From the IMG/VR virus record IMGVR_UViG_3300021093_000004: 64,000 nt of DNA; one strand, 5' to 3'. Below the pieces are notes generated by a model. That model made no database searches and was not told the DNA's origin. It worked only from the letters and a program-made list of their open reading frames with translations. The DNA is from a virus. Lineage: Duplodnaviria; Caudoviricetes. Positions 2,969 to 21,414 of this stretch are shown piece by piece. The first letter of the stretch is position 1; each line of letters opens with the position of its first letter. Position numbers and translations under genes: made by a program.

Positions 2969-3589
2969 ATGATTCATAGATTTGGAATTTCACAAGGCGT
3001 TGGCGACGAGGCTTTCGACTCAGTACACGAAAGCTTTCGCTCTGATGTTGACCAACGACATACTCCTATAGCATTACATGATCCCGAATCTGCTGACATC
3101 AAATTGGCTCGGCGATTAGCCGACGAAATGATAAATGTTAGTGGGGCGGAGGTTAAGGTATATGTTCGTACTGAGAACAGTGATTATGATACGGTTTGGG
3201 ATGAAGATGCGGACCCGACCTATTGGGCACCGATGCTGACTAAGGGATTCTTTAAGCCCAAACCGATCGAGATGGAATTGAAGCGTTGGGGTGTCGATAC
3301 TACCAACAAAACGGAAATTGTCTTCAGTCACCGACAGATTTATAACTTGCTTGGTGAGCGTATGCTTAGAGCCGGTGATGTTATTCAATTGCCGTTCAAT
3401 GCTGTGCCAATAAGCCCAAAAAATTACCGCATCTTGAATGCGACACCCAGTGGTAATTTTAGATATATCTGGTTATATTTCACATGCCAGATAGAATTGC
3501 TCACTGCCGATGTCACCGTTCGTCCCGAGGCTGATATGCCGGATGAAGAACAGATTCAATCTGGTGGTCAATATAGGGAATCGTTATGA
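2969..3589 (+). CDS. Neck/head-closure protein, T4 gp14-like
   Basis: E.I...GxEVKVY..., ELKRWGVD..., GDVIQLP pattern; GAGGA RBS before ATG 2969. Confidence 0.65.
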   Translation: MIHRFGISQGVGDEAFDSVHESFRSDVDQRHTPIALHDPESADIKLARRLADEMINVSGAEVKVYVRTENSDYDTVWDEDADPTYWAPMLTKGFFKPKPIEMELKRWGVDTTNKTEIVFSHRQIYNLLGERMLRAGDVIQLPFNAVPISPKNYRILNATPSGNFRYIWLYFTCQIELLTADVTVRPEADMPDEEQIQSGGQYRESL

Positions 3590-5080: not shown

Positions 5081-7939
5081 ATGCCAGTATACTTAAGTCC
5101 GGGCGTTTTCCCGCGAGAAATCGATCTGAGCGTGTTGCCAACGGCAGTGGGTCCACTTCGGCCAGCATTCATTGGTACTGCCAAGAAAGGGGCAATGAAT
5201 CAGCCGTTGTTTATATCCAATTCTCAACAAGCCCTCGAAACATTCGGCGAACCGTTCCCCGAAAGTTATTTGATGTACGCAGTGCTTGCCTTCTTGGAAG
5301 AAGGTAATCAGTGCTACGTTATGCGGGTCGGTGTTGAATGTGAAGACGGGCAACCAGATGAACTATCTGACATCTGTATCGACACCTCTGGCGGTCGTGG
5401 GAAAGGCTGGGGACGAATTCCTCTTTTCACTGGCATTGATTACGGTCGTATCAATCTTCGCCAAATTTCTGCGGATAGCCCCGTAACGTTCCATAACGCT
5501 GACGTAGCTAATATCGAATACAACGATGTTGATGTGTCCGGCACACACGGTCCAACTAACGCCACTCTCAACACCCTTGGGACCTATACCGGCGAGATCG
5601 ATGACTCTTACGTCATGATTATCGCGTCGGCACCCGACGCTTCGGCATTTGCATCAGTTCAAGGTGCCGCATTCCAAGTTATTCGAAATAGTGACGGTGA
5701 GGTTGTTGCCGAAGGCACGCTCGAAGACGGCAACGATGATGGAATCTCTGAATGGATTCCGATTGGTGATGGTTTGTCGGTTCGAGTGAACGTCACATCT
5801 GGCGTTTTGGACGAAAACGACACCTTCACTTTCACGGTGCAGCCAAATAACCGTTCGTTCTCGGTGTCCGTTGAAGGTGGTTCGGCGACTGTCTACCAGA
5901 TGCCGATTGCATCGTACACCACAGTTGACGACTTTGTTGCCGCGTTCAATGCGGTGATTGTTGCTGGTGGTGAAGATTACTTGATGGTCGAATACACGCT
6001 GGAAGACGGCGATACCGTTATCCCGCAATTGCGAACGACCACCGCTGGCGAACGCATTCAAATTATAACTACCAGTGCGTGGGCGCAGGAAGTCGGAAGT
6101 CAACAATATGCATGGGATATTCCCCGCTCGTACTTGCTTGGTCTCGATGCTGGCCTATATGCGATCACCACGCAAAATAACCGCGTCAAGATCAATGCTA
6201 TTGGCCAATCCGCAACAAAGACCATCGAATTCAATGTGCCTGTTGGTCTGGGCCAGACTGCTGCTGCCATTGCGAATGTCATTGATCTGGCTGGTATCGT
6301 CGCAGGCGACGTTATTTGGGATTCGTTTGAATTGACCGTTCCGGGCGGCAACACCCACGTAGTGATTGTCACATCACCGGGGCATCAGTTTGATACACTC
6401 CATATGCAGGCCAGCTTCTCTAACCTCAAAACATTGCGGTTTGCGGAAGAATTGAACATTCCATATCCGTACAAGCGGGCCTACCGTGGCTTCAACGACA
6501 ATCGGTTGACCTTACCAAATTCTGGCGAAGTTACCGCCGCAACGCCATTGTCCTGCGAAACTGATCCATTTGGTGCTGATTGTGCGGCTGATACAGCCTA
6601 CTTCCAGAATATCGTAGGATGGCTGGTCGCTCCTAGCCCCGGAACATGGGTCGAGGGTGCCTCTGCCACCTTGGAACTGTTCACCGAAGGATTGGGTGAC
6701 TCCGCTGGTCGGTACAAGCTGACCATCAAAGACGCGAACAAGCAAGTTGTTGATATTGTTGAAGACCTGTCATTCGATAAACGAATCGATCGGTACATCG
6801 CCAACGTCATCAATGCAGGAACTGAATATGGCGGAACCAACGGTAACGCCTACATGAACTGGGAAGAACGTCCGGCGTTCTTGAACAACAACGTCAATGA
6901 TCTCTCAACATTTGAAGTGCGGCAGCCGTCGCAACTCAATGAGAAAGAATACCAAGGTCAGGAAAACGGTATTCCGACCGATCCAGCATTTTCTAGCGAA
7001 TTGGATGCTGCGGTGATTGGTAATCCCGCCATCAGTTCTGGAATCTACGCATTTCAGAATCCTGAAACGCTGGATATCAACCTGTTGCTCACACCCGGAT
7101 TCTCAACTGGGGCTGTCATCGGAACGGCATTGCAAATGTGCGAAAGCCGTGGTGACGTGCTTTACATCGTTGACCCACCGTTCGGCCTCCGACCGCAACA
7201 AGTTGTCGATTGGCACAACGGTATGCTCCTTTCTGATCTCCAAGCAGCGATCAACAGCAGCTACGGTGCATTGTACTGGGGCTGGATTCGGGTGTTCGAT
7301 CAGTTCACTGCCGATGAACTTTGGATTCCGCCGTCTGGACACATTTCGGCGGTCTTCTCGCGAACCGCTCGCGAAGCAGAGCAATGGTTCGCTCCTGCCG
7401 GTCTTCGCCGTGGTCGATTGCTCACCGCACTCGATGTCGAATACTCACCGACACAGGGCGAACGCGACTTGCTATACGGTTCTGGCAATTCGGTTAACCC
7501 GATTGTAAAGTTCCCGCAAGACGGAATCACGGTCTGGGGTCAGAGAACTCTCCAAAGATCTCAGTCGGCTCTAAATCGTGTAAACGTCAGAATGCTCTTG
7601 ATCTATGTGAAGAAGAATTTGGTTCGCTTGCTCAGAAACTTCATCTTTGAGCCAAACGACAGAATTCTTTGGAGACAGGTCAAGGCGACGGTTGACCCAT
7701 TCCTTTCTGACATCCAAGCTCGTCGTGGTCTGACGGCTTTCAATGTCGTCGTGGACGAAACGAACAACACGCCGGAAAGAATTGACCGGAACGAGTTGTG
7801 GGTTTCGGTCTTCCTGAAGCCAACGCGAGCCGTTGAATTTATCGTGCTGAACCTTGTGGTTCTCCGAACAGGAGCGAGCTTCTCTGCTGAAGAGGTCTTG
7901 GCTGCTGGCGGCATTGTGACTTCGGCAACAGCCGTATAA
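5081..7939 (+). CDS. Contractile tail sheath protein (gp18-like)
   Basis: YLSPGVFPREID N-terminus; WFAPAG, WGQRTL, RVNVRML and KPTRAVEFI sheath motifs. Confidence 0.96.
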   Translation: MPVYLSPGVFPREIDLSVLPTAVGPLRPAFIGTAKKGAMNQPLFISNSQQALETFGEPFPESYLMYAVLAFLEEGNQCYVMRVGVECEDGQPDELSDICIDTSGGRGKGWGRIPLFTGIDYGRINLRQISADSPVTFHNADVANIEYNDVDVSGTHGPTNATLNTLGTYTGEIDDSYVMIIASAPDASAFASVQGAAFQVIRNSDGEVVAEGTLEDGNDDGISEWIPIGDGLSVRVNVTSGVLDENDTFTFTVQPNNRSFSVSVEGGSATVYQMPIASYTTVDDFVAAFNAVIVAGGEDYLMVEYTLEDGDTVIPQLRTTTAGERIQIITTSAWAQEVGSQQYAWDIPRSYLLGLDAGLYAITTQNNRVKINAIGQSATKTIEFNVPVGLGQTAAAIANVIDLAGIVAGDVIWDSFELTVPGGNTHVVIVTSPGHQFDTLHMQASFSNLKTLRFAEELNIPYPYKRAYRGFNDNRLTLPNSGEVTAATPLSCETDPFGADCAADTAYFQNIVGWLVAPSPGTWVEGASATLELFTEGLGDSAGRYKLTIKDANKQVVDIVEDLSFDKRIDRYIANVINAGTEYGGTNGNAYMNWEERPAFLNNNVNDLSTFEVRQPSQLNEKEYQGQENGIPTDPAFSSELDAAVIGNPAISSGIYAFQNPETLDINLLLTPGFSTGAVIGTALQMCESRGDVLYIVDPPFGLRPQQVVDWHNGMLLSDLQAAINSSYGALYWGWIRVFDQFTADELWIPPSGHISAVFSRTAREAEQWFAPAGLRRGRLLTALDVEYSPTQGERDLLYGSGNSVNPIVKFPQDGITVWGQRTLQRSQSALNRVNVRMLLIYVKKNLVRLLRNFIFEPNDRILWRQVKATVDPFLSDIQARRGLTAFNVVVDETNNTPERIDRNELWVSVFLKPTRAVEFIVLNLVVLRTGASFSAEEVLAAGGIVTSATAV

Positions 7940-7983: not shown

Positions 7984-8571
7984 ATGCCAGGATTTAACGT
8001 TCAACCATTCGGCGGTGGTTATTCTGCCGAAGGACCGTCGAATACGGTTGAAGTGCGGCGTAAGCACCGTTGGGTTTTCGAAACCCTCGGTCGCGGTACG
8101 AGCACCTTCTCCCAAGCTGAACTGTTGGTGCTACAATCGGCGTCCCGGCCAAGCTTCAAGTTTGAAGAAACGGACATGCACCATAACCAAGAACAGGTAT
8201 GGTTTGCTGGTAAGCAGAACTGGGACCCAGTTACCATGGTGTGGTACGACGTTGAACAGTCACCCGATATTTCGCGTGGTATTTACCACTGGTTAGAAAC
8301 CGTGGTGAACATGCAAAGCATCGCGGTAGCACACCCGCGATTCTACAAGAGAACCGCTTCGCTTATTCTGCTCGACGGTACTGGACAAACCACGGAACAA
8401 TGGCAAATGTTTGGTACGTGGCCAGTAACGATCAACTGGCAGGAACTCGATTACACTTCGACGGACCTGATGACCTGCGAAACCACAATGCGATATGATC
8501 GTGCGGTCCGGACGTGCCTTCAGGCTCCAGGCCCGCAACCGATTTCGCCGAACTGCCCACAAGGGAGCTAA
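7984..8571 (+). CDS. Tail tube protein (gp19-like), probable major tube
   Basis: Follows the sheath; GKQNWDPVTMVWYD, WQMFGTWP and LDY..D...RYD tube motifs. Confidence 0.88.
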   Translation: MPGFNVQPFGGGYSAEGPSNTVEVRRKHRWVFETLGRGTSTFSQAELLVLQSASRPSFKFEETDMHHNQEQVWFAGKQNWDPVTMVWYDVEQSPDISRGIYHWLETVVNMQSIAVAHPRFYKRTASLILLDGTGQTTEQWQMFGTWPVTINWQELDYTSTDLMTCETTMRYDRAVRTCLQAPGPQPISPNCPQGS

Positions 8572-8634: not shown

Positions 8635-8645
8635 GTAGGTATGTT

Positions 8646-9239
8646 ATGCCGGGCTTTTTAATTCCGAATACGCAGCCATGTAATGAAGGATTTAAGGGTC
8701 AATCTGTATATGAAGGTCCTGATCCTAACATGGAATATGCTCGTCGGAACCGATGGATATTAGAGTTTCTCGAGCCATTTGGGGACATAAAAAACGGTAT
8801 ATTGCTCTATGCTCATAAATGCACGAGACCGACACCAGAAATCGAAGAAATTGAAATTCATCATGGACAAGATGTAATATATCGGCCAGGGAAGAATCGC
8901 TGGTATCCAATAGATTTCACGTTTTATGAAAAGGCTCCCGGAACTGGTGATGGCCCACCGACTGAAGACGAAACAGCCAGACGAATTTACGACTGGTGGG
9001 CTAGATCAATGATAAACCTCACTGAATCAAGACATGGAGAACTGGATGACTATCTGAAATATGGCAACCTACAAATGCTCGATGGAAGCGGTATAGGCAT
9101 TTGGGAATATCAATTATACGAATGTTGGCCGCTGAAAGTTTCTCCTTCTGATTTAGACTATGCAGATAGTAATATAGCAGAAATCACAGTAACTCTACGT
9201 TACAATAAAGCTAAAGAGTTCAATGCGCCGAAGCTATAA
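8646..9239 (+). CDS. Tail tube-like protein 2
   Basis: Starts MPGF like its paralogs; YQLYECWPLKVSPSDLDY...VTLRY motif. Confidence 0.8.
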   Translation: MPGFLIPNTQPCNEGFKGQSVYEGPDPNMEYARRNRWILEFLEPFGDIKNGILLYAHKCTRPTPEIEEIEIHHGQDVIYRPGKNRWYPIDFTFYEKAPGTGDGPPTEDETARRIYDWWARSMINLTESRHGELDDYLKYGNLQMLDGSGIGIWEYQLYECWPLKVSPSDLDYADSNIAEITVTLRYNKAKEFNAPKL

Positions 9240-9256
9240 AGCTAGAGAGCAGTAAT

Positions 9257-9835
9257 ATGCCAGGATTTCAAGTCCAAACATTAGGCAAGCCAGTTCCATC
9301 AACAATTCAATATTATTACACATATACGTGGTCTCTGCCAACAATTTTCGGCATCGGTGCACAAAGTCCGCCATTAGTGCTATTAAAGGAAGCGACAACC
9401 CCGACATTCACCGCGAACAAAGAGAATTACGTTGGATCAAGTCTTGAATACAAGTATGCGAAGAGCATTACTTGGGAAGATATCAAGTTAACATGGTATG
9501 ATAGTGTTGGCTTGATAGATATTATCAGAGGCTGGCGGGAATCTGTTTGGACGCCGAAGGACGGATTAAAGCCAGCCACAGAATATAAACAAACCACTGA
9601 ATTGGAATGCTTCTTGCCTACTGGTAAGAGAACATATGGATGGAAATTGAATGGTAGCTGGCCATCGCAAATTAGATGTGGTGATCTAACCTATACTAAC
9701 AGTGATGTGAAACTCGTCGAAGTCACTGTTTCATATGATTGGGCGGAAGATATCTTCTTCCAGCCAGCAGCATCTCAACAGCCACCTCCGTACGTGAGCC
9801 CGGCATTGGACGGAGGCGGCGTGCCTCTTGGTTGA
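9257..9835 (+). CDS. Tail tube-like protein 3
   Basis: MPGF start; WEDIKLTWYD, WKLNGSWPS and DLTY...VTVSYD motifs. Confidence 0.8.
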   Translation: MPGFQVQTLGKPVPSTIQYYYTYTWSLPTIFGIGAQSPPLVLLKEATTPTFTANKENYVGSSLEYKYAKSITWEDIKLTWYDSVGLIDIIRGWRESVWTPKDGLKPATEYKQTTELECFLPTGKRTYGWKLNGSWPSQIRCGDLTYTNSDVKLVEVTVSYDWAEDIFFQPAASQQPPPYVSPALDGGGVPLG

Positions 9836-9962
9836 CTGGCGAAAAGGTTGGACAGCCAGACCGTCCTGATCTTGTTTAACACGCAATTTCATTTCTTCGC
9901 GATTTCGATGTATATAGAGTCGCTGGTACTTCTATTCTATTCCGCATGGGAAGACGAACAAA

Positions 9963-10991
9963 ATGGCCAACGAAGAAGAAATTAATCTCGATCCGATTGC
10001 CCCATCGCCCAAGCCTTCTTCTGGGGACTCTACCACTCAGGAAGAAATCAACCAGATTTACACTGCTGTTGGTGATTTATCTGGTCTAGTTGGGCCGGGT
10101 GCCACCAATGAGGAATTGCTCACACGTATTCTTCAGGCCCCTGAAGAAAAGCTCATTCCGTGGGAAGAATGCCATCTGCCGAGTCGTGGTATTTATTATG
10201 GCTGGCCAGACGGTACGATCATGGTGAAAGCCATGGGTCAGACCGCCGAAAAGGTGTTGGCGACACAGCGGCTTGCTCAATCGGGACAATCGATTGATTA
10301 TTTGTTCAGAGAATGTTGCAAATTTCCAGACGGATTTGATGCAGCCGACCTGTTGCTTGGCGATCGTGTATTCTTGCTATACTATATTCGTGGTATCACG
10401 CACGGCAACATGTACGAATTTGCGATCACATGTCCGAACCCAGATTGCGGGGCCGTTTCTACTCACACTTATGATCTGAACGAACTGGCTCGCACGGTGG
10501 TGTGGGCCAATCCTGCACTTGGTACTGAACCATTCAAGGTGAAGTTACCCTATCTCAGCAAAGCCACGAATCGCGATTTCTACGTCGGGGTCCGCTTCCT
10601 GAGAGGTGCGGATGCCAATGACATTTTGGCGAAGCGGAAAGCTCGCAAGAAGATGTTCGCTCGCCCCGGTGGTGTTCGGACAAAGGGGACACGCGGTGGA
10701 ATGCCGGTTGATCCTCGACGCCAACAACAGCAAACACAACAGATCGATGACTCAGTGTCCGAAAACATGGGCAAGATCATCGTCAGTGTAATGGGAGTTA
10801 CGGATCACTTCCAGATTCGGCAATTCATTGAAAGGATGCATGCGCAGGATACCGCAGCCGTCCGTGAGTGGCTACGAGATAACACCCCAGGTATTGATAA
10901 TACCGTAACCGTTGAATGCCCAGAGTGTTCACAAGAATTCACGATGGAGCTTCCGATTACGGAATCCTTTTTTCGACCGTCAAAAGCCTGA
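9963..10991 (+). CDS. Baseplate hub assembly / tail assembly chaperone, T4 gp26-like
   Basis: LPSRG, DRVFLLYYIRGIT, CPNPDC and C-terminal CPEC...PITESFF pattern. Confidence 0.75.
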   Translation: MANEEEINLDPIAPSPKPSSGDSTTQEEINQIYTAVGDLSGLVGPGATNEELLTRILQAPEEKLIPWEECHLPSRGIYYGWPDGTIMVKAMGQTAEKVLATQRLAQSGQSIDYLFRECCKFPDGFDAADLLLGDRVFLLYYIRGITHGNMYEFAITCPNPDCGAVSTHTYDLNELARTVVWANPALGTEPFKVKLPYLSKATNRDFYVGVRFLRGADANDILAKRKARKKMFARPGGVRTKGTRGGMPVDPRRQQQQTQQIDDSVSENMGKIIVSVMGVTDHFQIRQFIERMHAQDTAAVREWLRDNTPGIDNTVTVECPECSQEFTMELPITESFFRPSKA

Positions 10992-11232
10992 GGAATACGA
11001 TAGAGCATACTATAACTTAATGGAACAACAGTTCCAATTGAAGCACCATGGAAACCTGAGTCTATTCGAACAGGCGGCTATGGTCGCTGAAGATCGTGGA
11101 TGGTGGATAAAGCGTCTTGAACGCGAATTTAAAGAGAAGGCTGAACGCGAACACAAGCAAGTTGGTTCTGCACCACGGCCTCGCATGCCTTCTAAACCTA
11201 CCGTTTCTCGCCCATCAATTCCGCGTCGGTAG
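10975..11232 (+). CDS. gp51-like small ORF, possibly reached by +1 frameshift from the gp26-like ORF
   Basis: NLMEQQFQLKHHGNLSL..EDR resembles the small T4-like hub chaperone; ATG 11020 has no nearby SD. Confidence 0.6.
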   Translation, partial: DRQKPEEYDRAYYNLMEQQFQLKHHGNLSLFEQAAMVAEDRGWWIKRLEREFKEKAEREHKQVGSAPRPRMPSKPTVSRPSIPRR

Positions 11233-11300
11233 CGTTTAAATATACATTATAGTCGATTGGGTGTACCAGTACAAAAATAGGTATAACGGAGAGACCATAT

Positions 11301-12167
11301 ATGAGTTCGACACAACTTGCGAATGCGTTTCCGCGAATATCAGCACGTCGCGGACAGGTTGTGGATTTAAATGTGGACTTCCTACATGCCGGAGTGCTTG
11401 CTGATCCGTTCGCGGTCCGGCATATTGAGATCTATAAGACGCAAGTCGTCCCGCACAATCTGGTCGCCACGATTCCGTTGATGTTGCCGACCGATCCGTT
11501 GTACCCTGCTCCGGTGATTCGAGAGTATGAGGATGCTGAAACTGGCGAGTGTTGCACAGAACCAACAGCAGACACAATTCCCATTGCTGGCAAATACCAC
11601 TTACCATATCTGATTCCTACAGACTTCGGTGTGCCGGATGTTTACTTTGACGTCTGGTATTACTTTGCGGATAATCCGTGCGGTGAGTTAGGAACGTCCG
11701 GAACCGAATGTGATATCGATGATCCTCAATATGACGAATTCTTGTTGAAATGCTGCCACCGATTCTGGATTTATCCAGACGAGTGGATGTGCGACGATAA
11801 ATTACAGACCATACGATTTGGTTTTGAGCCGCTGGATCAGAAATTCCATCAGCCCGAATATCGTCCGTTAGAAATCGGGTTAATGCCGCTTCCGCTATAT
11901 GACTATAATTTCAATTTAGTCAACCCGATGATTCCGTTCTTGCAACCGACGATCACGATTGAAACACAACACAACGAGTTACTAGTTGATAATGACGTTT
12001 GCCGCATTGGTGTGCGACAGGGATCATATCGTTCTAATCCTTGGGTAATTCAGTACGATCTCGATACTACCAGATTTTTGAAGGGAACGTATCGATACTA
12101 CATTACCTTGAGATTACCTAACGGTGGCACTCGTGTCAGCCGTAAGTTCATCTTTACGGTTGCTTAG
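11301..12167 (+). CDS. Hypothetical protein (288 aa), probably structural
   Basis: GGAGA RBS, CAAAAATA motif upstream, long ORF. Confidence 0.75.
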   Translation: MSSTQLANAFPRISARRGQVVDLNVDFLHAGVLADPFAVRHIEIYKTQVVPHNLVATIPLMLPTDPLYPAPVIREYEDAETGECCTEPTADTIPIAGKYHLPYLIPTDFGVPDVYFDVWYYFADNPCGELGTSGTECDIDDPQYDEFLLKCCHRFWIYPDEWMCDDKLQTIRFGFEPLDQKFHQPEYRPLEIGLMPLPLYDYNFNLVNPMIPFLQPTITIETQHNELLVDNDVCRIGVRQGSYRSNPWVIQYDLDTTRFLKGTYRYYITLRLPNGGTRVSRKFIFTVA

Positions 12168-12178
12168 GGAGTAGATCA

Positions 12179-12700
12179 ATGTCAGATTCAGCGAGATCTC
12201 AGTCGCTTCAGATGGTTATTGGCGGGATACAAGAAGGACGTGCTAACCTCAGGAAAATCAAAAAACTCACGGAACGTTTGGATACTGAATGCGAGATCGG
12301 CGAAGTAGGTTTAATTAATTTCTGGAATTTATCTCCGGATATGTTCGTTGTGGCATCAACGGACGGAAGATTCCTAGAGATCAATGATTCATGGACGAGT
12401 GTACTGGGGTGGACAAAGGATGAATTATTATCAACCTCGTGGTTTGATTTTATCCATCCAAACGACGTACGTCCGACACGAGAAGTTATCGGACATATGA
12501 CGACCAACACGTTACTCCGCTTTCACAACCGGTACAGAAAGAAGTCAGGCGGATATGTCTCTTTGGAATGGAGTGCGACTCAGTGGCGTGATGGGAAATG
12601 TTACGCTGTCGCACGGCCTGTTCCATCCTTATGCCTAACCTGTCCCGAAGCGGCATCACGGTTCGGCTTTGAGGTGGAACCACATGGCGAGCACAGATAA
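12179..12700 (+). CDS. Stand-alone PAS-domain protein
   Basis: FWNLSPDMFVVASTDGRFLEINDSW..VLGW..DELL...FIHPND..RYRKKSGGYVSLEW is a canonical PAS/PAC sequence. Confidence 0.9.
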   Translation: MSDSARSQSLQMVIGGIQEGRANLRKIKKLTERLDTECEIGEVGLINFWNLSPDMFVVASTDGRFLEINDSWTSVLGWTKDELLSTSWFDFIHPNDVRPTREVIGHMTTNTLLRFHNRYRKKSGGYVSLEWSATQWRDGKCYAVARPVPSLCLTCPEAASRFGFEVEPHGEHR

Positions 12701-13106
12701 ACCCGGTGATACGTGGGCAGAGTATCGTCGTCTGGTTCTCGCTGAATTAGAACGGCTTGATGTCGCTGTATGCAAACTCGCTGAAACCAATCTCGAACAT
12801 GAAAGAGAACTGGTTGAGACTCTATCCGCATGCAAGACCGAACTGATTGAGAGATTACAGACTCTCAAAGAAATGATCGAAGATCGGCATAGACGAATAG
12901 TCGAAGATGTCAAAGCTGAATTAGAGACGAAAGAAAAGCATGATATTGACGAATTGAAGACTCTGATCAAAGCAGTGGAGGATTCTTACCACAAAGCATC
13001 AGCCGAAATTAAGGTAATTAAGGCAAAAGCCGCACTCTTTGGCTTCTTGGCCGGACTTGCCATTGCGATAGCCTCACTTGTGGCGAAATTTGTGTGGGGC
13101 AAATAG
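12684..13106 (+). CDS. Coiled-coil protein with a C-terminal transmembrane helix
   Basis: Heptad-rich body; C-terminus AALFGFLAGLAIAIASLVAKF; GAGGTGG RBS. Confidence 0.75.
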   Translation: MASTDKPGDTWAEYRRLVLAELERLDVAVCKLAETNLEHERELVETLSACKTELIERLQTLKEMIEDRHRRIVEDVKAELETKEKHDIDELKTLIKAVEDSYHKASAEIKVIKAKAALFGFLAGLAIAIASLVAKFVWGK

Positions 13107-13121
13107 CTGTATTAAAGATGT

Positions 13122-14243
13122 ATGCGATATGACCTCAGTCAATTTCGTTCCAATGCTGTTGGTGGTGTGTCTATTCCACCCGCGAAGATTATTGCATGGA
13201 TTACGAAACACTTCCAGTTCAAGACCCGAAAGGGTGGAGCAGAATATTGTATAAATAATCCGTTCGATGACGATACTGGGTATAATTTCAATATTAATCC
13301 GGAAAAAGCACGATGCCATGATTGGCGTGGCGATGAGTGGGCTGGCCCTATAAATCCGGAAACCAATCGTCGCAATTGCTCATTTATAAAATTTGTTAGA
13401 TTATACAAGAAATGCCGATATGCAGAAGCTGTCTCGGACGTTCTCGGTACCGCCGTTGACATTCGCTTCTATCTCAGGCCCGAAAACCGGCTTACCGATC
13501 AGACGGCCAAGAAAAAGATCGCCGTAGCCCTTCCTGCTGGCGTTGAACAATTAGCTTCATCGACGGACCGTCAAGCGAAGCTTTTGATCCACTGGTTAGG
13601 TACAAGAGGGTATACCAAAGACGACATCACCAAGAATGATATACACCATCTTGGAATGGATGTTTATTGGCCATACTATGAGTTCGACACACTCGTGTAC
13701 TGGCAAAGCCGGTCTCGGCTTAATAAGCGGTTCAATTTTCCATCTTTGGATGTGTACAACGAATCCGGCAAAGTCGTCGGACAGGTCGATGGGACCAAAG
13801 GAGACTTTTTGTATGGGTTTGATGATGTCGAACCGGCTAGCTATGTTATTATAACTGAAGCGATTTTTGATAAGCATACGCTTGGGGACCAAACGATAGC
13901 ATCGGGTGGTGCAATTCTTACCCCGAAACAAATCGGGAAACTGAAGATTTTGGGGCCGCGTAATGGCATTATTCTGGCTCCAGACAATGATGTCGCTGGA
14001 CTGAAAAGTGTTATTTCAAATTATCAGTTGCTATCATCACACGGATTCAATACCTATTATAGCATTCCACCATCCTTAGAATACGAGCGTGATGGCGAGA
14101 AACGATATACGAAAGATTGGAATGAAATAGGACAATTTGTTACCAGCTTCGATAAGGTACGTAAACTGCATGACGATGGAATTCGGAAGATTACCGAAGA
14201 AGCCTTAGTCGAATTAGATGAACGGATCGCATGTTTAAAATAA
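13122..14243 (+). CDS. DNA primase (DnaG/gp61-like, TOPRIM domain)
   Basis: VIITEAIFD, ILAPDNDVAG TOPRIM motifs; degenerate N-terminal Zn-binding region (YCINNPF...CHDW). Confidence 0.82.
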   Translation: MRYDLSQFRSNAVGGVSIPPAKIIAWITKHFQFKTRKGGAEYCINNPFDDDTGYNFNINPEKARCHDWRGDEWAGPINPETNRRNCSFIKFVRLYKKCRYAEAVSDVLGTAVDIRFYLRPENRLTDQTAKKKIAVALPAGVEQLASSTDRQAKLLIHWLGTRGYTKDDITKNDIHHLGMDVYWPYYEFDTLVYWQSRSRLNKRFNFPSLDVYNESGKVVGQVDGTKGDFLYGFDDVEPASYVIITEAIFDKHTLGDQTIASGGAILTPKQIGKLKILGPRNGIILAPDNDVAGLKSVISNYQLLSSHGFNTYYSIPPSLEYERDGEKRYTKDWNEIGQFVTSFDKVRKLHDDGIRKITEEALVELDERIACLK

Positions 14244-17568: not shown

Positions 17569-20500
17569 ATGCCAGCAGTTGACCCGAACGTATACGCACT
17601 GAGTATTCAGTTACAATTAGACTCTCAAGAGGCTTTCTCCACTCTTGATCGGTTTGGGGAGTCTATTACCGCTGTCGAAGAGCAGATGGCAAAGGCCGCT
17701 GATAAAGCTCTTCATAACATCAACAATATCGTTCAGCAGATCGAAACGTCTTTGACGCATGTGACCGATTTAATTGGTCAGATGGATATGAGTGCGGTCA
17801 AAGTAGCGTCTAGTCTAGATTCTATCAATCGATCGACAACGGATAGCCAAAAAACAACTGAAGAAGATCTTGATAATTTATTGAAACAACGGGATCTTTG
17901 GGAAGAAGTCGTAGACTTTTACGCTGAAGTCACAGAATCGCTTGAACAACATTTGAAGTTGCATACTCGTGATGTTAAATTGCTGGATGATATTCATCAA
18001 GCGATTCTTACCAAGAATATAGGCCACAATGATCAAAATAAGTTTATCGATGCTGGAAACAAAGGATTACAACACGGTAATAAGTTAGCTCGTGGTCAGC
18101 GAGATGCAGTCAAGGCAATAGCGGATATGTGGCATAGTGTGTCGGCTGCCCTTGCTGGTACTGTTGCATATTACGCGAAGGTTGATCAAGGCACTGAAGC
18201 GTTCGTCCAAACAAATTATCGAGCGTATGGGTCACAGCAATTATTATTGCAGTCAACCCGACAACTTTCCACTGAGCTTGGTGTTTCCGCTGAAACTGCA
18301 ATTGCGACCTATAAAGCCCTTGCGGATGTTCGTACACCGCGAGAGGAAATTGAGAAGTATGCACAAGTAGTGGCGATGGCTAATCGCACTACGGGTGCGA
18401 ATATCCAGACATTGGCGATTTATACGGCCAGAATGCGGGCACTTGGCTTGACTGCTGGACCATTGCAGCAGCATATCGCCAGATTGACGGAACAAATGAG
18501 AAAATTCGGCTTGACAGCCGATGATGTCAACCGACTGATGAATAATACTTCTAGTAGTGCCGCAGACTTAAGAGACCTATTTGGTGGCAATACAGAAGAA
18601 GTTAAGAAATTCGAAGCGACATTTGCCGCTTTATCCGGCATGGCTAAACAATATGGGTGGGAGGTATCACAAATTGCCCAATTCCAAAAAAATGCGACTA
18701 ACCCAGAGCAGTGGATATCATTAGGTAATCAGACTGATATGGCGATTCAGGGTGCGGAGGATTACCAAGCTGCATTGCTGAAAATTGGTAGTCAATTAAG
18801 CACTATGCAGGCTGAGATGGATGCTGCTGGTGGTGCTGCGACAAATCAAGGCATGCAAATAAAAAACGAAATGGTAGGCTTGTTAGATGCTATTGGTGCT
18901 AATGAAGATTCGGGAAAAGCTTTAATTGATATGTATAGACAAGCCAGCAAGGAAGCTGGTGGAGCGGCATCTTCGGCTGCCGACTTCCAGCGTGTCATGG
19001 ATACTATGTCCAATAGTATGGACAATCAATATGCAGAATCAATGGCTGCATTATATGCCGAATTTGAACGTCTAAAGAATACTTTTGGTGCTCTGTCAAG
19101 TAGTGTATTACAATTTGTTGCTGATGGATTGATGTATCTCATATCGGCATTAAATAAAATTCTATATCCCATAAGTGTAGTTATTACCAAAGTTTTACAA
19201 TTCATCAATTTACTTGAAAAAATCCCGATACTCGGACGATATATTACCTATTTAAAAATCATCGTAGCAGTATTGGTCGTCGCCGGTGCTGTCTTCTTGG
19301 CTGCTGCTGGTGGAATATCGATATTTGCACTTGCGGTGGGATCGGCTAGTGGAATAGTCACTGGTGCGATTAATATAGTGACATCGATGGCTCAAGCGAT
19401 GGTGTCTGTCGCTCGTGCAGTCGGTGAATCAATTGTTATTATACTACAAAGCCTCGGTCAAGGATTGGCCGCCCTTGGGAGATCTGTCCAGCCGGTTATG
19501 CTGCCATTATTGGCACTTGGATTAGCATTAATGATGGTTGGTGCTGCGGCGTGGATGTTCGCACAAGCTGTCAAGACAATCGCTGAAGTGGGTGAGGCAG
19601 CTATTAAGGTTACCTTGGGTATGCTTGTCGCCATTGGTCTTCTAGGGCTTATGTTAGTTGGCTTGGGATACCTTGCAGGTCCTGTTGCGGGCGGTGTTTT
19701 GGCAATTGCTGGTGCAATTCTGTTGGTCGGCCTTGCTGCTATGCTGATGGGCCTTGGGATTATGTGGGCTGCACAGGGCCTGCAAATCATGGCCCAAGTT
19801 ATCAGCGTCGGACTAGTGACGCAGTTGCCGACGCTGGCTCTTGGTCTGATAGCTCTCGGTTTGGCTGCATTGGTTGCCGCTCCTGGTTTGGTGCTTCTCG
19901 GCGTTGCGTTGTTGTTCGTTGGTCTTGGGCTAACGTTAATTGCATCAGCACTGGTATTACTTTCTACTGCTTTGGAGAATCTTTCAGGGGTTAAGCTTGT
20001 TCAAGTCGCTACGGGATTCTTACAAGCATCATTAATATTTATAGCCGCTGCTGGTATTGCGATCGTTGCTGGAGTATTATTGCTTGCAGCATCAATAATA
20101 CTTGTCCCAGCAGCGTTAGCACTATTGGTCGCGTCGTTAATTTTATCGCTCGCTGGTGTTATATTCTTTATAGCAGCGAGCATGATTGCTATTGGTGCTG
20201 CATTACTGGCGGTCGGTGTGTCATTGCTGTTACCGGTAGCTGCAATGGTATTCACTGCCGGGGTCATGATCGGCGTCGGTGGCTTGATGATGTTGGCTGG
20301 TATGATCGCAATGTTAGCGGCAGTTGCTCTGATGACCGGTCTATCTTTCATATTGCTGCTCGCGTCGATTGCGTTGGGCACCGCTATTGCATTGCTAGTT
20401 CCGATCGCTGGAATGGTGATGGGCGTCGGGGTACTGATGTATGTAGGCGGTTTAATGATGGTTATGGCTGGGACACTGATGGTGATGGCTGGTATGCTGT

Positions 20501-21414
20501 TCACCACGGGCGGATTGATGCTAATGGCGTCGGCGGCATACTTGTACATGGCCGGTACAATGATGATGATTGCCGGTAGTGTTCTTGTTGACGGATCGAT
20601 GGTGTTAATTATAGCTTCGACATGGCTATTTGTAGCATCGCTTGAAATGTTGAAGGCTGGTATGGCCATCCTGCCTGGATCATATATGATATATCTCGGT
20701 CTGTCATTGCTACAGATGGCTGTGTCAAGATTTGCTAACACCATTGAACAAATTAAGATCGTTGGTGAGGGCATACTCAAATTAGCAACAGCCTTCAAGA
20801 TGATTCAAGACATTCCTGCCAGCAAATTGAAAGATGTTGCCGCTGATGCATTGAATGCGTTGCCGGATATTGATGCACTCGCGACTGGTTTGGATCAGGT
20901 GTCTGGAAAGCTTGCTGAATCTACCAGAAGATTCGCTGGCCCAGCGAATGAATTGGCTGAAGTCTTAGAACGACTTGGTACTGCTATCTCTCAATTTGGA
21001 GAGGGATTATCTCTCGCTGAAGATGTAGGCCAATTGGCGAACATGTTGGATCAATACGCATCTCTCTTAGAGGGAGCGGCTGATCGTATGGAAACTGCTG
21101 TTCAAACACGAGCGATTCCTGCAATGCGTGCCGCTGAGCAGGCCGGATTACAAGAAGCAGTTCGTTCCGAAGCGATTACTACAGTACAGGTAATGACTGA
21201 TTCCGAAGGTGGAGAGGACGACTCTACTGATTTAGCTGCTATTGGTACGGCTCAGTTGGTCGCGTTATTAGCACTGCAAGAGACAGTTGCAGGATTGCAA
21301 CCAAGTCGATCTGGTCCAATCCAAGATATTGTGAGCTTATTGCAGGCATACCTGCCAGCAATGGCTAGAAAAGACACGGGCCTTTCTACAGAATTTAACG
21401 CTTGGGCGAAGTAG
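17569..21414 (+). CDS. Tape measure protein
   Basis: 1281 aa, helical Ala/Gln-rich N-half, long hydrophobic repeat region, lies before baseplate genes. Confidence 0.85.
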   Translation: MPAVDPNVYALSIQLQLDSQEAFSTLDRFGESITAVEEQMAKAADKALHNINNIVQQIETSLTHVTDLIGQMDMSAVKVASSLDSINRSTTDSQKTTEEDLDNLLKQRDLWEEVVDFYAEVTESLEQHLKLHTRDVKLLDDIHQAILTKNIGHNDQNKFIDAGNKGLQHGNKLARGQRDAVKAIADMWHSVSAALAGTVAYYAKVDQGTEAFVQTNYRAYGSQQLLLQSTRQLSTELGVSAETAIATYKALADVRTPREEIEKYAQVVAMANRTTGANIQTLAIYTARMRALGLTAGPLQQHIARLTEQMRKFGLTADDVNRLMNNTSSSAADLRDLFGGNTEEVKKFEATFAALSGMAKQYGWEVSQIAQFQKNATNPEQWISLGNQTDMAIQGAEDYQAALLKIGSQLSTMQAEMDAAGGAATNQGMQIKNEMVGLLDAIGANEDSGKALIDMYRQASKEAGGAASSAADFQRVMDTMSNSMDNQYAESMAALYAEFERLKNTFGALSSSVLQFVADGLMYLISALNKILYPISVVITKVLQFINLLEKIPILGRYITYLKIIVAVLVVAGAVFLAAAGGISIFALAVGSASGIVTGAINIVTSMAQAMVSVARAVGESIVIILQSLGQGLAALGRSVQPVMLPLLALGLALMMVGAAAWMFAQAVKTIAEVGEAAIKVTLGMLVAIGLLGLMLVGLGYLAGPVAGGVLAIAGAILLVGLAAMLMGLGIMWAAQGLQIMAQVISVGLVTQLPTLALGLIALGLAALVAAPGLVLLGVALLFVGLGLTLIASALVLLSTALENLSGVKLVQVATGFLQASLIFIAAAGIAIVAGVLLLAASIILVPAALALLVASLILSLAGVIFFIAASMIAIGAALLAVGVSLLLPVAAMVFTAGVMIGVGGLMMLAGMIAMLAAVALMTGLSFILLLASIALGTAIALLVPIAGMVMGVGVLMYVGGLMMVMAGTLMVMAGMLFTTGGLMLMASAAYLYMAGTMMMIAGSVLVDGSMVLIIASTWLFVASLEMLKAGMAILPGSYMIYLGLSLLQMAVSRFANTIEQIKIVGEGILKLATAFKMIQDIPASKLKDVAADALNALPDIDALATGLDQVSGKLAESTRRFAGPANELAEVLERLGTAISQFGEGLSLAEDVGQLANMLDQYASLLEGAADRMETAVQTRAIPAMRAAEQAGLQEAVRSEAITTVQVMTDSEGGEDDSTDLAAIGTAQLVALLALQETVAGLQPSRSGPIQDIVSLLQAYLPAMARKDTGLSTEFNAWAK

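Follow-up and report, generated by a model that had tools for sequence, protein, structure and literature searches.

A candidate +1 frameshift at a conserved UUU_C site in a gp26/gp51-family gene of a giant tailed phage

A baseplate hub-family gene with an open +1 frame at its 3' end

The stretch of DNA analysed here, referred to below as the window, comprises 64,000 nucleotides of the tailed-virus record IMGVR_UViG_3300021093_000004 (Duplodnaviria; Caudoviricetes) in IMG/VR. The subject of this study is the gene at 9963..10991 (+ strand), which we propose to encode a short protein of 342 amino acids (aa) and, by a +1 change of reading frame near its 3' end, a long protein of 422 aa. Because the record is a 100-kb fragment estimated to be 26% complete, its source is a giant phage; the available part contains one gene of the PF12322 family. 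This gene is the 342-aa open reading frame (ORF) at 9963, which matches PF12322 (T4_baseplate) with an E-value of 8.1e-10 and 39.2 bits (cut-off 24.5), residues 82-338 covering profile positions 10-219 of 219, and matches phrog_150 ('baseplate hub') with an E-value of 3e-14. The short form contains two CxxC pairs and has the C-terminus ...ELPITESFFRPSKA. A search of 5.8 billion proteins identified 460 homologs, and all 120 of those among the matches listed are 290-377 aa long and carry PF12322. In an alignment of 40 homologs, C157, C162, C319, C322, F336, F337, R338 and P339 are invariant, and the zero-frame end ...ELPITESFFRP(S/A/T)K is nearly so. A predicted structural model of the short form (predicted local distance difference test, pLDDT, 76.7) matched baseplate hub or gp51-like proteins of many myoviruses in BFVD; the best fold match was the baseplate hub subunit of Bacillus phage SP-15 (E 2e-18, template modelling (TM) score 0.83 by target), and many further matches were labelled 'baseplate hub assembly protein, T4-like'. 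Compared with the PDB using Foldseek, the model matched no solved structure at E <= 0.001, and blastn of positions 9000-12500 against the phage collection gave no match.

The ORF ends GAA TCC TTT TTT CGA CCG TCA AAA GCC TGA, with the zero-frame stop TGA (10989..10991, + strand) five codons past the second of two Phe codons. The proposed shift site, UUU UUU CGA (10968..10976, + strand), consists of these Phe codons at 10968-70 and 10971-73 and the CGA codon at 10974-76. In the +1 frame, the nearest upstream stop is a TAA (10906..10908, + strand), and the frame is open from 10909 to 11229, where it is closed by a TAG at 11230-32. If the UUU at 10971-73 is read as UUUC, translation continues as ...ELPITESFF-DRQKPEEYDRAYYNLMEQQFQLKHHG..., or, written further, ELPITESFF-DRQKPEEYDRAYYNLMEQQFQLK..., joining 337 residues of the zero frame to an extension of 85 codons (DRQKPEEYDR...SIPRR) plus TAG (10975..11232, + strand), for which the open frame, profile matches and conservation are described below. 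The original prediction, made from the window sequence, had described this ORF end, the TTT TTT CGA site and a 422-aa fusion beside the 342-aa product; the first two can be read directly from the sequence and the third was reproduced exactly (337 + 85). The extension terminates in a basic tail rich in Pro, Ser and Met, of variable length and usually ending in RR (in the window, 11170-11229: PRPRMPSKPTVSRPSIPRR), and the tails of many relatives contain PSMPSMPSM repeats (relatives with a basic tail of this kind include L018, L036, L037 and L047).

Codon choice at the proposed shift site is frozen among relatives

To describe conservation of the site, we used relatives at 80 IMG/VR loci with 45-83% protein identity, 63 distinct loci of which served for codon counts. 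UUU followed by CGN is present at the site in 80/80 relatives (75 by motif scan and five more that have the 3' end and lie outside the motif pattern). Among the distinct loci, the second Phe codon is TTT in 63:0 cases, the first is TTT in 60:3, and the following Arg codon is CGN in 63:0 (CGC 41, CGT 18, CGG 3 and CGA 1); UCC precedes the Phe codons in 31/63. As controls, four other invariant Phe columns of the same gene and loci have TTT:TTC ratios of 44:19, 31:31, 19:20 and 20:23 (sum 114:93), and three other invariant Arg columns contain 107 CGN and 50 AGR codons (32% AGR), with AGA or AGG in 17-49% of loci. Fisher tests of the site against these controls gave 3e-14 for Phe and 5e-9 for Arg, values that are not strict probabilities as the loci are related. 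At this protein identity, synonymous positions elsewhere in the gene are clearly randomised. Because the Phe and Arg codons are frozen at the site while synonymous choice is free elsewhere in the gene, we conclude that the site is, as judged from codon usage, under selection at the nucleotide level. Thus, the conservation of TTT-TTT-CGN in homologs on which the original prediction depended was found, and at synonymous positions. Its definition of the slippery site held for UUU_CGN but not for the run of six T residues (T6): the first Phe codon may be TTC, and the essential element is UUU_C. TTC TTT CGN variants that keep the +1 layout with a run of only three T residues (T3) occur in L043, L045-L047, L049, L052 and L057 and in the phages HSE3 and GXN1, which are introduced below.

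We considered that, since homopolymer runs often attract sequencing errors and in-frame long forms exist in other lineages (see below), the window could contain a broken gene, or an assembly indel in the homopolymer, with a single 422-aa ORF as the true gene. This explanation is hardly credible, since 80 independent assemblies from many samples have the same frame layout, the protein sequence of the zero-frame tail, RP(S/T/A)K, is conserved, and loci without the homopolymer (TTC TTT) share the layout.

The +1 frame carries a coding signal directly after the site

In all relatives, the +1 frame runs open through the site for 64-105 codons, and residues E17, L22, E32, Q33, E39, R41 and W43 of the extension are invariant. 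The distance from the site to the first +1-frame ATG downstream of it, which encodes residue 16 of the extension (11020..11022, + strand; referred to as the Met position), is constant apart from one 11-codon insertion in L043, L050 and L054. The insertion, e.g. RRRSAESDEDYF, lies directly after the first +1 codon and preserves the frame. The aligned sequences thus show a linker that tolerates length change only in multiples of three.

Positional entropy changes phase at the site. Upstream of it, the most variable position is the zero-frame third position in 26/28 codons; between the site and the Met position, it is the +1-frame third position in 10/13 codons (binomial p 0.0016), with 2/13 and 1/13 for the other frames. 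In 56 distinct sequences covering the columns ahead of the Met position, column 9 is E or D in 56/56, column 10 is K or R in 54/56, encoded by varied codons (AGA, CGG, CGT and AAR), and column 12 is Y or W in 56/56. Based on this alignment, the 15 residues ahead of ATG 11020 are conserved as protein in the +1 frame. The codon phase and these conserved residues bear out the expectation, also part of the original prediction, that the +1 frame would be coding before the ATG.

The same alignment delimits the region in which the frame has to change. The position of the zero-frame stop varies from 2 to 13 codons past the second Phe codon, with the ending FFRP* in L066 and L068; the stop thus lies at +9 in two loci, and in 11 relatives the upstream +1 stop lies 14 nucleotides (nt) before the second Phe codon. 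Because of the +1 stop at -14 nt in these 11 loci and of the FFRP* loci, the frame change is, as read from the relatives, confined to ~20 nt around UUU UUU CGN (about -11..+9 nt).

The extension alone matched nothing in Pfam and PHROG at E 0.1. A profile of 34 extensions compared with 1.84 billion proteins gave 164 matches at E <= 0.001, nearly all of which are ORFs of 37-133 aa.

Distant relatives keep the layout or carry the long form in one frame

A tblastn search of 50,697 phage records gave five matches with 22-27% identity. In the Bacillus phages SP-15 (KT624200) and vB_BceM-HSE3 (MF418016; HSE3), the order runs from sheath and tube to 'baseplate hub subunit', then a small hypothetical ORF and the tape measure, placing the gene in the classical position of the chaperone pair. 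The zero frame ends EFFHARFDD* (TTT TTT CAC) in SP-15, EFFRPKFR* (TTC TTT CGT CCC) in HSE3 and EFFRPRFD* (TTC TTT CGT CCC) in Streptococcus phage GXN1, and in all three the +1 frame continues into an extension-like domain. Scored downstream of the site with the extension profile, GXN1 and HSE3 reach 22.7 and 21.4 bits, respectively, and SP-15, more weakly, 9.8 bits. The SP-15 and HSE3 records probably miss a frameshifted long form. In these records, SP15_046 and HSE3_gp075 (3306-3425 of locus L081 and 3243-3413 of locus L082) are annotated as 'hypothetical protein' from internal Met codons of the extension domain, and in SP-15 the annotated start of SP15_046 removes the conserved LDEQFDL segment.

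Two further arrangements were found. In LR756511, a 595-kb uncultured phage, the corresponding ORF ends GGT TTT TTC TTC; its counterpart of the extension domain is in the -1 frame, downstream of a canonical U_UUU_UUC heptamer. This domain matches the extension profile weakly, at 2.8 bits (single-sequence E 0.0067), and the -1 reading is tentatively based on position and the shared LMDEQF motif. The domain, LMDEQFFFLYH..., is found at about 3245-3480 of the fetched locus (L084). In contrast to these overlapping frames, two proteins, P0255 (325 aa) and P0256 (301 aa), have PF12322 followed by the extension in one frame, demonstrating that in-frame versions of the predicted fusion exist in nature. 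On each of their contigs, the long ORF is preceded by a PF12322 paralog without extension, ending LFYPEIDL* or LFYPELDI*. Because the long ORF adjoins a short paralog, these lineages supply the short and the long form from two genes.

Comparison with T4 gp26 and gp51

T4 gp26 and gp51 are baseplate hub assembly chaperones, and gp51 is absent from the particle (PMC3004832); in this family, such a role off the virion is known from T4 only. T4 gp26 (208 aa) spans PF12322 positions 1-206 and terminates in EFFELL* (TTC TTT GAG); because gene 25 starts at its stop, there is no extension after it. T4 gp51 (249 aa) aligns to PF12322 with residues 1-201 and then has a 48-aa C-terminal tail. The window gene and the T4 genes share PF12322, phrog_150 and the FF motif at the end of the domain, and gp51 has its tail where the extension attaches in the window gene. 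They differ in that T4 has two genes and no shift, whereas the window has one gene with a proposed shift.

The original prediction had called the downstream part 'gp51-like'. Position supports this label, gp51 being a PF12322 domain plus a 48-aa tail; support from sequence is weak. In hhalign comparisons of the gp51 tail with the extension, p was 0.025 and 0.036, and 0.0011 with a broader alignment, always in the same register. The phrog_150 match of the fused reading extends from profile position 233 to 259, gaining 3.4 bits, and phrog_634, the family matching gp51 residues 147-246, is the PHROG most often matched by the extensions (5/34, best E 0.012). We therefore regard the label as plausible, not proven. 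A full-length profile comparison of the fused proteins with gp51 was set aside as uninformative, as it aligned one zinc ribbon in the wrong register.

In the record of Acinetobacter phage vB_AbaM_Berthold (MN709128), the gp51 homolog is named 'tape measure protein assembly chaperone'; we found no paper behind this name. In this one record at least, gp51 has thus already been identified with a tape-measure chaperone by its annotator.

A proposed mechanism for the frame change

We consider it likely that the gene at 9963 encodes the short (342 aa) and the long (422 aa) protein by means of a +1 shift at UUU_C, the mechanism being deduced from the sequence comparisons. Most ribosomes would read FFRPSKA and stop, generating the 342-aa short form as the counterpart of T4 gp26. 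At the site, tRNA-Phe (anticodon GAA) would occupy the P site on UUU 10971-73 with a G:U wobble while CGA 10974-76 waits in the A site. In a minority of ribosomes, tRNA-Phe would re-pair with the overlapping UUC 10972-74 before CGA is decoded, shifting the frame by +1. These ribosomes would continue with GAC CGT CAA... and add the 85-residue domain, generating the 422-aa long form as the counterpart of T4 gp51. A low-percentage shift efficiency would suit a ratio like that of the lambda tail proteins G and GT.

The window, each of the 80 IMG/VR loci and the phages SP-15, HSE3 and GXN1 all have UUU_C, in which the P-site UUU precedes a pyrimidine. UUU_Ynn is particularly liable to +1 shifts in bacteria, and UCC_UUU_CGU constitutes the minimal influenza cassette (PMC5009743). 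The original prediction had likened the site to that of influenza PA-X; in both, C comes after the P-site UUU, and the shifted tRNA-Phe thereby acquires a G:C pair. Further points in common are the A-site CGN in the window site, the UCC ahead of the Phe codons in about half of the loci counted above and the lack of need for a downstream structure. The window site differs in lying in a bacterial virus, in having two Phe codons and in the A-site codon, which is mostly CGC in the relatives; moreover, PA-X is a host shut-off protein, whereas the window product is proposed to be an assembly factor made at a fixed ratio.

Alternative routes to the second product

Because loci with TTC TTT CGN keep the design, the data fit +1 re-pairing from UUU to UUC and argue against a -2 shift as well as against slippage by the polymerase. 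We infer from this a shift made by the ribosome, not by RNA polymerase, and of +1, not of -2. The long form could alternatively arise if RNA polymerase drops one U on T6, or if the ribosome shifts by -2 on UUU UUU and so inserts one additional Phe. T6 is kept in 60/63 loci, -2 re-pairing from UUU to UUU would be perfect on it, and the TTTTTTC string also serves the -1 lineage of LR756511 (L084), so that polymerase slippage could give both frames. On the other hand, the TTC TTT CGN loci have T3 only, on which -2 re-pairing would mismatch, and six T residues are short for productive polymerase slippage, the known bacterial cases of which use about nine. Both routes are minor possibilities for the T6 loci, and taken together we consider them quite improbable.

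The main alternative is that there is no fusion and that the downstream ORF is a separate gene. The canonical +1-frame starts after the upstream stop are TTG 10912, ATG 11020, TTG 11038, ATG 11080 and ATG 11185, of which TTG 10912 lies 80 nt inside the upstream gene, and TTG 11038, ATG 11080 and ATG 11185 lie deep inside the domain. Translation from ATG 11020, or re-initiation after the zero-frame stop, would generate a 71-aa protein. The Met position has ATG in 49 of the 56 distinct sequences (TTG in 2, CTG in 2, and TTA, CTC and CTT in one each), gene callers list the domain as its own ORF in nearly all of the 164 profile matches, often starting from that Met, and the GenBank records of SP-15 and HSE3 have small ORFs annotated at this place. 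The original prediction had pointed to the lack of a nearby Shine-Dalgarno (SD) sequence at ATG 11020; there is indeed no SD-like match in the preceding 20 nt, but this was set aside as evidence because 12/37 other window genes, a third, also lack one, making SD-less genes common in the window. Against separate genes, selection acts at the protein level in the +1 frame on the 15 residues ahead of the Met position, although in many loci no canonical start lies in the interval from the upstream +1 stop to this conserved segment. Moreover, the Met position is occupied by a non-start Leu codon (CTG, TTA, CTC or CTT) in 5/56 sequences, and in L005 and L006 the first canonical start comes no earlier than +67; the independent start that the original prediction named as a point to check in homologs is thus not usable in some of them. 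Separate genes also leave unexplained the 63:0 counts for TTT and for CGN at the site as well as the in-frame fusions, which include the linker. Altogether, we regard two separate genes as unlikely.

Several observations weigh against the proposed +1 shift. A missing SD proves little given its frequency in the window, and with ATG kept at the Met position in most sequences, separate initiation of the 71-aa protein may serve as an additional route. No downstream RNA stimulator was detected (RNAalifold on 31 sequences predicted 0 pairs, and the single-sequence fold had z = -0.03), and no conserved SD-like element was found upstream of the site. In the A site, the relatives mostly have CGC or CGT, codons that are not rare in model bacteria. 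The likeness of the extension to the gp51 tail is, as described above, weak. Finally, zero-frame conservation extends to R338 and P339 after the site, and the conservation of CGN CCN is thus partly at the protein level, reflecting zero-frame selection on Arg-Pro. As far as the codon counts go, such selection leaves the preference for CGC and the exclusion of AGR unexplained.

A G/GT-like chaperone role

The phage lambda G/GT pair and the conserved frameshift of tail assembly chaperone (TAC) genes are known from the work of Levin (1993) and of Xu, Hendrix and Duda (2004), as reviewed in PMC5009743. Because of the T4 literature on gp26 and gp51, the position of the SP-15 and HSE3 genes by tube and tape measure, and the parallel with lambda G/GT, we propose that the two forms are chaperones; on the model of lambda G/GT and of the genetics known for T4 gp26/gp51, they would be absent from the virion. 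A fixed ratio of short and long form would be needed for the initiation complex of hub, tape measure and tube. In a pair of the G/GT type, the tape measure would be bound by the short part and the tube protein by the extension.

In its conserved site, +1-frame coding and codon phase, the window gene resembles a G/GT-type frameshifted chaperone gene with two predicted products. Like lambda G/GT, it follows the tube gene(s), and in SP-15 and HSE3 the gene directly precedes the tape measure; in both systems, the type of shift differs between lineages while the design is kept. In contrast to the lambda system, the short form has 342 aa with zinc-ribbon motifs versus about 130 aa, the shift is +1 at UUU_C versus -1 at a heptamer, and the putative tape measure of the window lies 6.3 kb downstream with unrelated genes in between. 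In searches for homology to G/T, there was no match to a TAC family in Pfam, and the best TAC fold match, the HK97 chaperone 2ob9 (2ob9_B), had an E-value of only 1.1. Because no sequence or fold relation to the G/T families was found, our claim is that the gene works like G/GT, not that it is a member of these families.

A +1 shift by itself has precedents among tailed viruses. Listeria phage PSA reportedly shifts at a Pro codon next to a stop; in the window clade, by contrast, 2-13 codons separate the site from the zero-frame stop, which has no role in the proposed shift. Otherwise, the window gene resembles the PSA genes cps and tsh (Zimmer 2003, as cited in PMC9024508) and the G-T gene of the archaeal myovirus HSTV-2 (PMC5009743), in which +1 recoding likewise extends a structural or assembly protein of a tailed virus.

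Two products in the gp26/gp51 family

These comparisons lead to a broader hypothesis, which we hold with modest confidence, as somewhat more probable than its negation: the PF12322 family would serve contractile tails, throughout T4-like and giant phages, as their counterpart of lambda G/GT, with a short and a long form always required and supplied interchangeably by a +1 shift at UUU_C (this clade, SP-15, HSE3 and GXN1), by a -1 shift at U_UUU_UUC (LR756511) or by gene duplication (T4 genes 26 and 51, and the P0255 and P0256 lineages). Xu et al. (2004) reportedly described programmed frameshifting in tail chaperone genes as close to universal among long-tailed phages, the T4-like phages being the outstanding gap. 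If the hypothesis is true, T4 would no longer be an exception to the rule of conserved chaperone frameshifting, and gp51, long obscure and called 'catalytic', would acquire a concrete function. A two-product design in the gp26/gp51 family thus offers an explanation for the two paralogous hub 'chaperones' of T4.

The proposal also bears on annotation. The extension is nearly always called as an orphan ORF of 37-133 aa, and hundreds of giant-phage genomes would thus miss a 400-aa protein. UUU_CGN, conserved over 45-83% protein identity and with no visible stimulator, would represent a clean natural bacterial example of a PA-X-type +1 shift. Because the cultivable Bacillus phages SP-15 and HSE3 carry the +1 layout, the system is experimentally accessible.

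A full-text literature search, outside the coverage of which lie most subscription journals, found no report of a frameshift in the gp26/gp51 family, and the GenBank records of SP-15 and HSE3 annotate two separate genes at this position. The proposal carries the known principle of chaperone frameshifting over to an unrelated family of proteins, using a +1 site of the PA-X type.

Genomic neighbourhood

Based on Pfam and PHROG matches, the gene at 9963 is preceded by a tail sheath gene (5081..7939, + strand) and, directly upstream, by three tandem gp19-like tube paralogs (7984..8571, 8640..9239 and 9257..9835, all + strand). The order tube 1, tube 2, tube 3 and gp26-like gene is retained in nearly all relatives that have enough upstream flank; L075 has two paralogs only. 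All three paralogs begin MPGF, and paralog 1 is the most conserved (42-81% identity). This pattern suggests that paralog 1 is the major tube protein and that the other two are of initiator or terminator type.

The putative tape measure is a 1281-aa ORF (17569..21414, + strand), for which a PHROG scan gave no match. It is followed by gp5-, gp25- and gp6-like baseplate genes (phrog_430, phrog_261 and phrog_219). Between the proposed chaperone gene and the remaining tail module, positions 11301-14243 contain several unrelated genes. These comprise an uncharacterised 288-aa ORF, a gene at 12179..12700 for a PAS-domain protein standing alone, one for a coiled-coil protein that has a hydrophobic helix at its C-terminus, and, at 13122..14243, a Toprim/primase-like gene (phrog_47, E 5e-20).

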